From a virus (Duplodnaviria; Heunggongvirae; Uroviricota; Caudoviricetes), in IMG/VR virus record IMGVR_UViG_2877245776_000006: a DNA stretch of 64,000 nt. The stretch is one strand, 5' to 3'. Below are positions 3,001-6,000 of this stretch, piece after piece. Each line of letters begins with the position of its first letter. The stretch's first letter is position 1. A program made the position numbers.

Positions 3001-6000
3001 TGAATAAACACCGGGAACTTGTCATGCAGATTACCGATTCATCCAGCAGTATTGCATCGGAAAAGTGATAACTGGAGAGCTTATGGCAAAAGTATTTACA
3101 CCCGAACAGCGGGAAGAACTGAAGGCACGTATTGTGGAGCTCGTGCGCCTGAATGGTCGGGGAACGTTCAGGCAACTGGCTACTGAAACCGGAGTCAGCA
3201 AGACAGCTGTCAGACGTTTGTCCAGAGAACTGGTTGTCAGTGGCGCTATATTCGACTCAGGTTATGGTTTATTCCCGTCTGATCAGGCGCGTAAGGACTG
3301 GCAAAATGCCCGCAAAAAACTCTCGAGAGCAAAGGCAAAGAAACCGGTTGTTATTGACCCTGGTCTTATCCGGGCATTACCTGATGGGGAAATCCGGCGC
3401 TACGACAGACGCTACAACATAATTTGTCGCGAGTGCCGTAACAGCGAAACGATGCAGCGTGTGCTGGCATTCTGGCGGGGGAGTGCAGAGGGATTGATGT
3501 TCTCCCCGTCGTGAATGACGGGGGCTTACGTGTTCAGAAAAGTGATTCATATAGAGGCTGAATCTGATCTTTTTTGTTCACGTCTGGCTGCCACCATTGC
3601 AGGCAGAGTGAAGGCGTAGACTAAAAACATTTCGGTAAAACTCAGGATCTGGCTTGCCTCAATTGGTGTGAAAACTTCATCTGTATGAACTGCTTTATTG
3701 GCATCAATTCGTACAATATGAGCCCATTCCTTCATCTGTTCAGTGATCAGCCCTTTTTTGTAAATCATCTGAATACGTTGCGACAGCGATTCTTTTCCTG
3801 CTTCATCGCCGAGCAGTTTTTTCGTGGAGATATCGAGGACTCTGCGACAAAGAATTACCACTGTGTCGTACCGCCTCCTCTGTAAATCCTCTTTTGCCTC
3901 AACAAAAGTACGGTCTGCAACCGGGGGCGTATATTCTGGTGCGGTAATTTTTTTGACCGCAGGATAGATCTTGCGGAAACGGTACTGGCTATTTCCTGAA
4001 ATCAGAATATCGAGGTCTTTTTTCTGGCTTTCCGCCATGGGGCCGTGATAGTGGTCTGATGGGATTTCAACAATAGCAACACCTCCTCGATGACAACTTC
4101 TGCATACAAAAGCGACGTTAAAAAGAGGTGTTTTTTCAATTTGTTTTTCGGCAAATGCCTCAATAACAGCTCGCTCTTTTAAACAGTGTGGGCATGTAAT
4201 GTCAAAGGAGACTAAACTCATGGATATTCCTCTCGAAATTAAAGAAATTAACGAAATCATTGAGGTTACTGATCGCCCCGAGTTTACCCTCATGCGTCGT
4301 TATGAAACAGGAACCGACGAACAAAAATACATCATGGTTGCAGCATTGGCTGTGATGGCGATAGAAAGGGAGCGGAGGGAAAAGGACGTAATGGTTATTC
4401 CGGCGAGAAATGATTCACCGGATTTGAGATGGCAGGATCCGGAGTGGGATGTGGCAATCCGGTGATTGATATTTCTCTGGGGTAAAGCGCCGCCAGAATG
4501 ACGGCGCGGTAGTGGAGAGTTAAACGAAGCGGATCTGGAGTTTTTTCCCTGTAGCACGGGCGAATTTTTTCAGTGTGGCAAATGATGGGCCGCTTATACC
4601 TGATGCAAGATTGCTTTCCATTCTGGTGATCGCAGTCGCTTTTGTTCCCATACGTTCAGCAACTTCAGCCTGGGTTAAGCCTGCTTCTTTTCGTGCTGCC
4701 AGCATTTCATCAAGTAGTGCGAATTCGTCGGCGATGGCGTCGTATTCTGCTTTGAAAGCCGGATCCTCCATCCATTTGGCTGCCATTTCGTCGTGTGTCA
4801 TGGTAGGTGTAATGCGTTTACCAGTCATGCTTAACCTCCTTCATTCTGGCTTCAGCTTTTTTGCGTTCGGCTGGCGGTGTTTTCTGCGTTTTCTTAATGA
4901 AACTATGCAGCATAATGATGCGTTTCCCTGTCAGAGTGCAGTAAAAAACACGTGCAATCCCATCGTTGCCTTTAATTCTGAGTTCGAAAAGCCCATCACC
5001 AAAGGCGCTGGTATGAGGTTCTCCGAGATTGCTGCCGTATACCTTCATACGTTCAATGAGATGTTTGTATCGGACACGCATACTCAATGGAAGCTGATCG
5101 ACTTCCAGCCGGACCTCTTCACTGTAGTATTCGATAGTGTAGTTCATAGGTATCAACATAACAAATTTGTTATATGTATTCAAGGACTGTACTGTGTTGA
5201 CGACAACACATATCAAGCAGACAGTCATGCTGTTAGATCACGGTTTGCTTGATGGAAGGTTGACAACTCATAAGAAATTAAATTTATTAATAAGACTCAT
5301 TAAATTTTATGTTAGATTTGCAAGATGACAGGAAACAAAATATTAGGAGCAATAAAAAAAACAGGAGCAGCATTAATGTTTATTATTCTGCTGATCTTTG
5401 TAAAGATAATTGCAACTGAGTTCGGTGATAATAAAATTGATGATATTTTATCAAACAAAGAAGATGCAGATAAAATTGCCTCATACTTAAAAAATGAACT
5501 ATCCAAGAAAAAATTCCCTATTAAAGTAGATGATTATACTACATGGATTGCTGCAACCGTAGAAGGAAATACACTTAATCATTACTATAATATTTATGGG
5601 ATTAATGAAGATATGTCGCCATTTTTTGATGGTGAAGAGATTAAAAACTTAATGAGCCTAGAAATACAAAAAAAATTAAATTCTGTCGAGTGTAAAATGA
5701 TGCAGGAGTATAATTATACATTCAAATATCATTATAACATAATAAACACGAAATATAATGACTTAGTTATAATTATGACAAAGAGTAATTGTCCACAATG
5801 AAGGGGATGCATATGGATAACTCAAAACTGAAGAAAATGCTTATTGCATCTATTATCGGAAACATACTTTTAGTTTTTTTAAATATTCAAGTGTTCAACC
5901 AAAAACACTCCTCAAACGTCATAGACACACAAAAAAAAGAGGATAAAAGTAAGTGGACTGATATAGAAAACATTTATCCTGTGTGTAAGGTTCACAATAA

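Follow-up and report, generated by a model that had tools for sequence, protein, structure and literature searches.

A predicted toxin-antitoxin cassette of the Gp49/HigB type in the accessory region of a lambdoid Stx1 prophage

The DNA analysed here, called the window, is a stretch of 64,000 nucleotides (IMG/VR record IMGVR_UViG_2877245776_000006) that matches Shigella phage 75/02 Stx at 100% identity. On its minus strand, it carries a cassette of ~730 bp (~4485-5214), located between the replication genes and the nin genes and antisense to the phage early-right operon. The initial annotation had assigned this DNA to a 'cargo island', which agrees with its location in the accessory region, a variable part of this lambdoid Stx1 prophage; the position of the cassette differs between lambdoid prophages. 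The neighbouring ORFs encode a DUF4145 protein, an 88-aa unknown and an AT-rich block of unknowns, and none of them matches the SecB-like chaperone of toxin-antitoxin-chaperone (TAC) systems. Judged from its sequence, the cassette is an ordinary two-gene toxin-antitoxin (TA) module of a well-known family (Gp49/HigB-type toxin and XRE-type antitoxin), small and self-contained. Its features are the following, in the direction of transcription of the genes.

5193-5210, no strand: second inverted repeat (TGTGTTG-TCGT-CAACACA), read from the sequence, upstream of the predicted promoter
5178-5183, minus strand: predicted -35 hexamer (TTGAAT), read from the sequence, 17 nt upstream of the -10
5158-5173, no strand: perfect 16-bp palindrome ATAACAAATTTGTTAT (ATAAC-N6-GTTAT), read from the sequence and confirmed by script, candidate operator for an antitoxin dimer
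5155-5163, minus strand: predicted extended -10 (TGtTATGTT), a consensus reading, overlapping the right half of the palindrome and ending 7 nt before the toxin ATG
4818-5147, minus strand: toxin gene, 109 codons and a TAA stop, product starting with MNYTIEYY, Gp49/HigB-type, RelE/ParE superfamily
4835-4842, minus strand: antitoxin Shine-Dalgarno site GAAGGAGG, 6 nt before the antitoxin ATG and within the toxin codons M-K-E-V
4520-4828, minus strand: antitoxin gene, 102 codons and a stop, encoding an N-terminal helical region, then an XRE-type helix-turn-helix (HTH; residues ~44-98)
4487-4507, minus strand: G+C-rich hairpin resembling a terminator, its U tract being weak, 12 nt past the stop codon of the antitoxin gene, at the 3' edge of the cassette

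The toxin gene comes first in the direction of transcription and overlaps the antitoxin gene by 11 nt (4818-4828). An ORF of about 110 aa followed by one of 102 aa, in this order and with this overlap, had been described in the initial annotation, and the ORFs found encode 109 and 102 aa. That description gave no strand; both ORFs are on the minus strand. The toxin ORF is intact and full length, and a mechanical ORF call leaves it open further upstream, to 5228. The RefSeq PGAP call is a 113-aa product starting at 5159. As the ATG at 5159 lies inside the predicted conserved -10 hexamer, and as the homologues, mostly 109-111 aa long, align from M1 of the protein initiated at 5147, most of them thus beginning at the MNYT position, 5147 is the better start and the PGAP start was rejected.

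The initial annotation had proposed, as a check, a profile search against the RelE/ParE and HigA families. For the toxin, this search returns the Pfam family Gp49 (PF05973; E=1.8e-25, 89.3 bits for a cut-off of 23.9), toxin residues 16-103 corresponding to positions 3-90 of the 90-position profile. In the AlphaFold (AF2) model of the toxin (pLDDT 90.3), two helices are followed by four long strands and by a helix at the C-terminus; N-terminal helices packed on an antiparallel beta-sheet define the RelE-type fold of the RelE/ParE superfamily. The RelE/ParE-like toxin announced from the sequence is therefore recovered both as a match to a family of this superfamily and as a RelE fold predicted with high confidence. 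Foldseek places S. pneumoniae HigB (6af4/6af3, TM 0.71-0.77) and M. tuberculosis HigB1 (7awk, TM 0.79) at the top, followed by YafQ, RelE and YoeB; toxins of the RelE/ParE superfamily account for all the significant matches (E<=0.001) and for nearly all of the next 40. The sequence of S. pneumoniae HigB (6af3) is also matched (single-sequence E=8.7e-6; profile E=6.6e-9), the identity with the closest solved relatives being only ~20%. By contrast with PF05973, the HigB-like family PF05015, which includes the HigB of Proteus Rts1 and E. coli K-12, gives no match to the toxin at E<=0.01 in the Pfam search, and P. vulgaris HigB appears only at Foldseek ranks 45-49 (TM ~0.5). The toxin therefore belongs to the Gp49 branch, with N15 gp49, S. 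pneumoniae HigB and M. tuberculosis HigB1, and is outside the canonical HigB family. The NCBIfam model TIGR02683 (upstrm_HI1419 RelE/ParE toxin) matches it partially, at 21.3 bits for a cut-off of 62.85. PADLOC assigns no defence system; it reports weak matches for the antitoxin and one neighbour, and a partial match of the toxin (residues 49-99) to the candidate defence protein NsnC, which covers only positions 233-283 of a 293-position profile and reflects a shared domain rather than membership.

The antitoxin matches the Pfam family HTH_3 (E=3.4e-11, 43.4 bits, cut-off 23), and its best PDB relative is S. pneumoniae HigA (6af3_B; profile E=3.8e-7, single-sequence E=1.1e-3); the profile also matches M. 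tuberculosis HigA3 and HigA2. The Pfam matches of both proteins greatly exceed what chance would produce. The best solved relatives of the two proteins are thus partners in one complex, the S. pneumoniae HigB/HigA complex 6af3. This result, together with the HTH_3 match and the HigB/HigA label of a related phage record, bears out the HTH-XRE antitoxin in HigBA order that had been announced. The PHROG label of the antitoxin family is transcriptional regulator. Confidence in the antitoxin model is only moderate (pLDDT 73), and a fold search with it retrieves only generic XRE proteins (best E ~0.01) without telling HigA from other HTH proteins. For this protein, the sequence profile is more informative than the fold search.

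Most of the catalytic residues of the Gp49-type HigB mRNases, located in the beta-sheet and in the loop between strand 4 and helix 3, are kept in the toxin, as judged from a profile alignment mapped by hand onto the residues that PMC9098466 and PMC7984235 report. Toxin residues E55, R57, R66, F83, K85, Q88, K89 and K103 correspond to E66, R68, R77, F93, K95, Q98, K99 and K113 of M. tuberculosis HigB1, and R57, R66, F83 and K85 to R68, R73, F90 and K92 of S. pneumoniae HigB. Among 40 homologues, E55, R57, R66, F83, K85 and K89 are invariant or nearly so; Q88 and K103 are not.

The association of the two genes extends far beyond this prophage. Among 80 distant loci from diverse taxa (mostly Beta- and Gammaproteobacteria, but also Nitrospirota and Desulfobacterota; chromosomal and metagenomic contigs), 79 carry an antitoxin homologue directly downstream of the toxin gene, the overlap usually being 11 or 14 nt, and in the remaining locus the sequence stops at the edge of the contig. 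Selection on both genes is purifying, with a dN/dS of 0.02-0.15 in the toxin and of 0.03-0.36 in the antitoxin. Homologues are also found on 3,768 of 72,556 plasmids.

The predicted promoter of the cassette and the hairpin emerged only from the comparison of related loci and from folding. Indeed, a generic promoter and terminator scan of 4300-5450 called neither of them, and a generic inverted-repeat search missed the 16-bp palindrome. In the E. coli variants of the cassette, the arms of this palindrome are invariant and its centre is variable. More largely, the motif TA[AG]C-N6-G[CT]TA precedes the toxin start codon by 24-25 nt in 66 of 80 sequences, and 71 of the 80 have it within -45 to -10, for only ~17 occurrences elsewhere in 426 kb. 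Likewise, TGnTAnnnT ends 6-7 nt upstream of the start codon in 73 of 81 family sequences. A TTGxxx hexamer is common at -35 spacing across the family, the copy of the window scoring too low for the generic promoter scan to call it. The second inverted repeat is mostly conserved among the E. coli cassette variants. Of 79 loci, 72 have a Shine-Dalgarno core ahead of the antitoxin gene and none has one ahead of the toxin gene. Against a leaderless message, 25 of the 81 family members use GTG, a poor start for such a message, as toxin start codon. Since the layout of palindrome, -10 and start codon recurs family-wide, autorepression through the candidate palindromic operator is likely, and so is a leaderless, poorly translated toxin cistron. 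The hairpin (RNA fold -21.5 kcal/mol, z=-4.75) is conserved in the related loci L002-L004, in which homology stops just past it.

Among known systems, S. pneumoniae HigBA (PDB 6AF3/6AF4; PMC7984235) is the best match for both partners in sequence and structure. As in the pair of the window, the toxin gene comes first and encodes a Gp49-type protein that has a long C-terminal helix and bears the motif H-x-F-x-K-x-T-Q-K-T-P, the antitoxin is of the XRE-HTH kind, and there are promoter palindromes, which in the pneumococcus are bound by HigA and HigBA (PMC7984235). However, besides the low identity already mentioned, it has four palindromes of another sequence, no leaderless layout is described there, and it is a chromosomal locus of a Gram-positive host. 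M. tuberculosis HigB1 (HigB-TAC, Rv1955; PDB 7AWK/7NBU), a ribosome A-site mRNase (PMC9098466), gives the highest TM-score and shares the eight residues listed above, but it belongs to a tripartite system with a SecB-like chaperone and an antitoxin bearing a chaperone-addiction tail, whereas the pair of the window has neither chaperone gene nor tail. The gp49 proteins of N15 and phiKO2, after which PF05973 is named, are phage-borne and show ~45% identity with the toxin over residues 15-106 (44.6% for N15), and the phiKO2 copy is annotated as a RelE/ParE toxin. However, they belong to another subfamily and are carried by linear-plasmid prophages, for which plasmid maintenance is the obvious reading, whereas the cassette lies in an integrated lambdoid prophage. 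Canonical HigBA (Proteus vulgaris Rts1, E. coli K-12; PF05015) is also toxin-first, has operators that overlap its promoter and combines a toxin of RelE fold with an XRE-HTH antitoxin, but this toxin belongs to another Pfam family, is a weak fold match and lacks the long C-terminal helix. Lastly, the transcript from the autoregulated promoter of E. coli hicAB lacks the toxin ribosome-binding site (PMC7167474), which would be an analogous way to limit toxin synthesis in an operon that begins with the toxin gene, translation of the antitoxin being efficient; the likeness concerns the inferred regulatory logic only, the folds of both hicAB proteins being unrelated to those of the pair.

Globally, these data make it probable that the cassette is a type II TA operon of the Gp49 (PF05973)/XRE-HTH kind, known as HigBA in several species, borne by a ~730-bp prophage cassette with its own predicted promoter and terminator. 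Like M. tuberculosis HigB1, the toxin would enter the ribosomal A site and cut mRNA, thereby halting translation. A dimer of the antitoxin would neutralize the toxin by binding it via the helical N-terminal part of the antitoxin, and the antitoxin HTH would bind the ATAAC-N6-GTTAT palindrome and, as this palindrome overlaps the extended -10, repress the operon. Because the -10 ends only 6-7 nt before its start codon, the toxin is probably translated poorly, from a leaderless cistron, and the strong antitoxin Shine-Dalgarno site within the 3' end of the toxin gene would give an excess of antitoxin despite the toxin-first order. Loss of antitoxin supply, possibly caused by loss of the prophage, by an infecting phage that shuts off transcription or translation in the host, or by proteolysis, would leave the toxin free. 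The likely benefit would be retention of the prophage and/or abortive-infection defence, close to the putative roles in stabilization of mobile DNA or phage defence that the initial annotation had put forward for such pairs.

A broader proposal, to which somewhat less than an even chance is given, is that the whole Gp49/XRE subfamily combines a leaderless or near-leaderless toxin transcript, an extended -10 built into the antitoxin operator and an antitoxin Shine-Dalgarno site encoded in the conserved C-terminal helix of the toxin, and thereby hard-wires control of the translational ratio. In this prophage, head-on early-right transcription at induction might also switch off the cassette and set the toxin free.

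Other readings of the pair were considered. The cassette could be a decayed or domesticated remnant, in which the Gp49 protein is non-toxic and the XRE protein acts solely as a transcription factor. In M. tuberculosis HigB1, K58 and N73 are needed for toxicity, and the Gp49 paralogues HigB2 and HigB3 of the same species are non-toxic, which has been linked to the absence of K58 and N73, among other residues (PMC9098466). According to the hand mapping, neither residue is kept in the toxin, K58 aligning with S47 and N73 with D62 (adjacent to N61), and one E. coli variant of the cassette (L002) has ATA where the toxin ATG stands. However, the near-invariance of the core catalytic set, the low dN/dS of the toxin, the intact ORF and the retention of both pairing and overlap in nearly all the distant loci argue against decay, and a remnant appears unlikely.

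Membership of the RelE/ParE superfamily would also be compatible with a ParE-like gyrase poison instead of an mRNA endonuclease, and ParE2 structures do figure among the weaker Foldseek matches (ranks 32-46, TM 0.44-0.50). Nevertheless, the best matches in sequence and fold (S. pneumoniae HigB, M. tuberculosis HigB1, YafQ, RelE and YoeB) are ribosome-dependent RNases, whose catalytic Arg, Lys and Glu are kept in the toxin, and the gp49 family is listed among toxin-first, ribosome-dependent, mRNA-degrading systems (PMC11980606), so that a gyrase poison is very improbable. As for the XRE protein, the lambdoid early region is rich in HTH regulators and the PHROG label would suit a phage repressor that belongs to the circuitry of the prophage itself and neighbours the Gp49 gene incidentally. 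This reading is barely credible, since the overlapping genes travel together across many taxa, the palindrome lies within the pair's own predicted promoter and the best solved relative of the antitoxin is a HigA bound to HigB. Both the gyrase-poison and the phage-repressor readings were rejected on this evidence.

The pair is already known in public records, which label it as a RelE/ParE toxin or, in a related phage, as HigB/HigA. Literature searches on Stx phages with HigB/RelE and on phage 75/02 Stx returned nothing on the pair, and no experiment was found on it or on close relatives. Beyond annotation, i.e. a toxin start at 5147 rather than at RefSeq 5159 and a toxin of the Gp49 branch rather than a canonical HigB, the module has little importance. 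If active, it could help Shigella and E. coli to retain the Stx1 prophage or to exclude other phages, and would then be of modest interest for Stx phage epidemiology. The layout of promoter, operator and start codon is recorded here family-wide and is cheap to test.

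The pair described in the initial annotation as HigB/HigA-like is a toxin-antitoxin pair of the Gp49/XRE kind, and its gene layout was confirmed: two minus-strand ORFs, the toxin ORF being the upstream one, share 11 nt (4818-4828).

4818-5147, minus strand: toxin ORF, 109 codons, beginning MNYTIEYY; stop codon TAA (4818-4820)
4520-4828, minus strand: antitoxin ORF, 102 codons, beginning MTGKRITPTMTHDEM

The mechanical toxin ORF reaches 5228 and the RefSeq call (113 aa) begins at an ATG at 5159. As most of the best 120 toxin homologues are 109-111 aa long and align from residue 1, the start is placed at 5147, as it had been initially.

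The toxin matches the whole Pfam profile Gp49 (PF05973; E=1.8e-25, 89.3 bits for a cut-off of 23.9) and no other Pfam family at E<=0.01. Several other assignments were rejected: the canonical HigB family PF05015, since the Pfam search gave Gp49 alone; NCBIfam TIGR02683, a RelE/ParE model matched below threshold only; NsnC, by PADLOC profile comparison; and, for the pair, the chaperone-assisted TAC systems. Among PDB sequences, the toxin alone finds Streptococcus pneumoniae HigB (6af3_A, E=8.7e-6), which a profile of 40 toxin homologues finds at 6.6e-9, with Mycobacterium tuberculosis HigB1 (7nbu, 7awk) at 4e-4. The AlphaFold model (pLDDT 90.3, pTM 0.83) has a pair of helices at the N terminus, four antiparallel strands, all long, and a long helix at the C terminus. 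Its top Foldseek matches in the PDB are S. pneumoniae HigB chains (E 5e-7 to 1e-5, TM 0.71-0.77), followed by M. tuberculosis HigB1 (TM 0.76-0.79), then YafQ, RelE and YoeB; Vibrio cholerae HigB2 ranks 19 and Proteus vulgaris HigB only 45-49. As HigB, YafQ, RelE and YoeB are thus retrieved, a RelE/ParE-type fold is indeed predicted and, with the Gp49 match, bears out the RelE/ParE-like toxin proposed initially. In PHROGs v4, the toxin (4821-5147, minus strand) has a full-length match to phrog_2523 (E=4e-45); this family, labelled 'unknown function', is clearly a Gp49/RelE-type toxin family, and its annotation could be updated.

The antitoxin, likewise proposed as an XRE helix-turn-helix protein, carries this domain at residues 44-98 (Pfam HTH_3, E=3.4e-11). 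Its best solved relative is S. pneumoniae HigA (6af3_B), at E=1.1e-3 for the antitoxin alone and 3.8e-7 for a 36-sequence profile, for which M. tuberculosis HigA3 and HigA2 come next. A single complex, S. pneumoniae HigBA (6af3), therefore supplies the best solved relative of both proteins, which, with the Gp49 and HTH_3 matches, supports the HigB/HigA-like reading. The antitoxin model (five helices) is of only moderate confidence (pLDDT 73), and the folds it retrieves are those of generic XRE proteins, HipB, HicB and HigA among them.

Published HigB residues were carried onto the toxin through the homologue-profile alignment. For M. tuberculosis HigB1, the residues proposed to be catalytic, E66, R68, R77, F93, K95, Q98 and K99, and K113, which contacts tRNA (PMC9098466), correspond to E55, R57, R66, F83, K85, Q88, K89 and K103. 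Six of these eight are invariant or nearly so among the 40 aligned toxin homologues, the exceptions being Q88 and K103. The S. pneumoniae HigB residues that have mutational support, R68, R73, F90 and K92 (PMC7984235), correspond to R57, R66, F83 and K85. HigB1 K58 and N73 are not retained, S47 and D62 (N61 is adjacent) standing in their place. As K58 and N73 are, among other residues, missing too from HigB2 and HigB3, the M. tuberculosis paralogues that are non-toxic (PMC9098466), this is the main sequence-level caveat.

One genome per species was scanned for pairing, giving 80 loci whose toxin homologues show 59-89% identity; most belong to Beta- and Gammaproteobacteria and some to Nitrospirota and Desulfobacterota. 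An antitoxin homologue lies immediately 3' of the toxin gene, on the same strand, in 79 of the 80 loci, the remaining one stopping at a contig edge; the commonest overlaps are 14 nt (37 loci) and 11 nt (11 loci). Compared pairwise with the copies of E. coli, Edwardsiella and other enterobacteria, the toxin gives dN/dS values of 0.02-0.15 and the antitoxin 0.03-0.36. Therefore, both genes are kept by selection, as a pair.

The classification itself was already known. The gp49 family, about 22,000 toxin-first, ribosome-dependent mRNases also named Tad, HigB1/HigB3 or RelE, is catalogued (PMC11980606; also PMC5906591), RefSeq labels the toxin as RelE/ParE family, and a 70%-identical homologue in phage PhiR5_2 and its partner are annotated HigB/HigA, so that the finding, although correct, is ordinary. 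The sole mildly new element is a predicted family-wide layout of operator, extended -10 and start codon.

5158-5173: perfect 16-bp palindrome ATAACAAATTTGTTAT, candidate operator, just upstream of the toxin start
5155-5163, minus strand: predicted extended -10, TGtTATGTT, from the right arm of the palindrome
5178-5183, minus strand: predicted -35, TTGAAT (a TTGxxx hexamer), 17 nt upstream of the -10
4835-4842, minus strand: antitoxin Shine-Dalgarno GAAGGAGG, inside toxin codons M-K-E-V
4487-4507: G+C-rich hairpin 3' of the antitoxin stop (-21.5 kcal/mol, z=-4.75), where homology between cassette copies ends

In E. coli variants of the cassette, the palindrome arms ATAAC/GTTAT are invariant and the centre is variable. 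The pattern TA[AG]C-N6-G[CT]TA begins 24-25 nt 5' of the toxin start codon in 66/80 sequences and lies within -45 to -10 in 71; in the remaining nine, a near-match that is 1-2 pattern positions off occupies this location, and only about 17 further occurrences were found in 426 kb of flanking DNA. In 73 of 81 sequences, TGnTAnnnT (family consensus TGtTATTAT) stops 6-7 nt short of the start codon. A Shine-Dalgarno core at -18 to -4 precedes 72/79 antitoxin genes and none of the 79 toxin genes. The antitoxin dimer would thus repress transcription by occluding the -10 element, and the toxin mRNA would be leaderless or near-leaderless, and the toxin therefore poorly translated, while the antitoxin cistron would be translated efficiently. 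Together, these features could answer the toxin-first stoichiometry problem, a solution proposed here from sequence and analogous to that of the hicAB P2 transcript (PMC7167474). Two points count against it: a generic promoter scan made no call at the predicted toxin promoter, and the toxin start codon is GTG, poor for leaderless initiation, in 25 of 81 members. A second inverted repeat, TGTGTTG-TCGT-CAACACA (5193-5210), some 10 nt 5' of the predicted -35 and mostly kept among E. coli copies, could act either as a second operator or as an upstream terminator.

Over its first 25 kb, the window is 100% identical to Shigella phage 75/02 Stx, aligning from phage position 9831. Phage POCJ13 also has an identical cassette region, and for an Stx1a prophage of E. 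coli 2012C-4502 the identity of that region is 99.8%. Other Stx1 phages align with the window only from about 7463 onward, and the cassette region is therefore variable. The cassette, antisense to the early-right operon, is flanked on the replication side by DUF1627, DUF977 and a minus-strand DUF4145 gene, and on the other by ORF6N, NinB through Q, and stx1. Its place differs among E. coli prophages, some of which carry it in the NinE/antirepressor or the DUF4222/Rha interval. Among 5,426 complete E. coli genomes, 97 have it, on the chromosome in every case; homologues were found on 3,768 of 72,556 plasmids, chiefly conjugative ones of Klebsiella, and gp49 of N15 and phiKO2 are more distant (~45% identity). 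This distribution is compatible with an addiction or defence module, a role that the pair may have in this Stx1 prophage.

In E. coli JNEC-KY176 (L005:3110-3415), an additional orphan gene, 'HigA family addiction module antitoxin', is inserted directly after the cassette antitoxin, in place of the terminator hairpin that the window has there. E. coli SCU-104 (L002:3414-3755) and PhiR5_2 carry a mosaic cassette that looks like recombination within the unit, with 92% DNA identity to the window in the antitoxin gene and only ~70% protein identity in the toxin. There, ATA replaces the toxin ATG and the sole remaining ATG lies upstream, inside the predicted -10, so that toxin translation initiation may be lost or altered.

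Just upstream of the cassette, the DUF4145 gene (3547-4293, minus strand; weak PADLOC match PD-T7-4, E=0.0015) could likewise be an accessory or defence gene that the prophage expresses. The cassette also adjoins an AT-rich block (5250-6950; 27-35% GC versus ~47-52% in neighbouring phage genes), a separate insertion since it is missing from the otherwise similar SCU-104 prophage; it includes a DUF805 membrane-protein gene (6504-6893, minus strand) and ORFs 5325-5801 (158 aa) and 5789-6484 (231 aa), without Pfam or PADLOC match. ARAGORN found no tRNA gene in the whole window (1-64000). Above Rfam gathering scores, the sRNA STnc100 (12390-12588, plus strand, 141.9 bits) abuts the anti-GcvB sRNA AgvB on the opposite strand (12589-12648, minus, 56.6 bits). 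Three copies of sRNA-Xcc1 (71-80 bits, cut-off 53) lie at 7101-7184 (plus), 50855-50940 (minus) and 51392-51480 (minus), one of them at the variable-region edge, just before the ORF6N gene.
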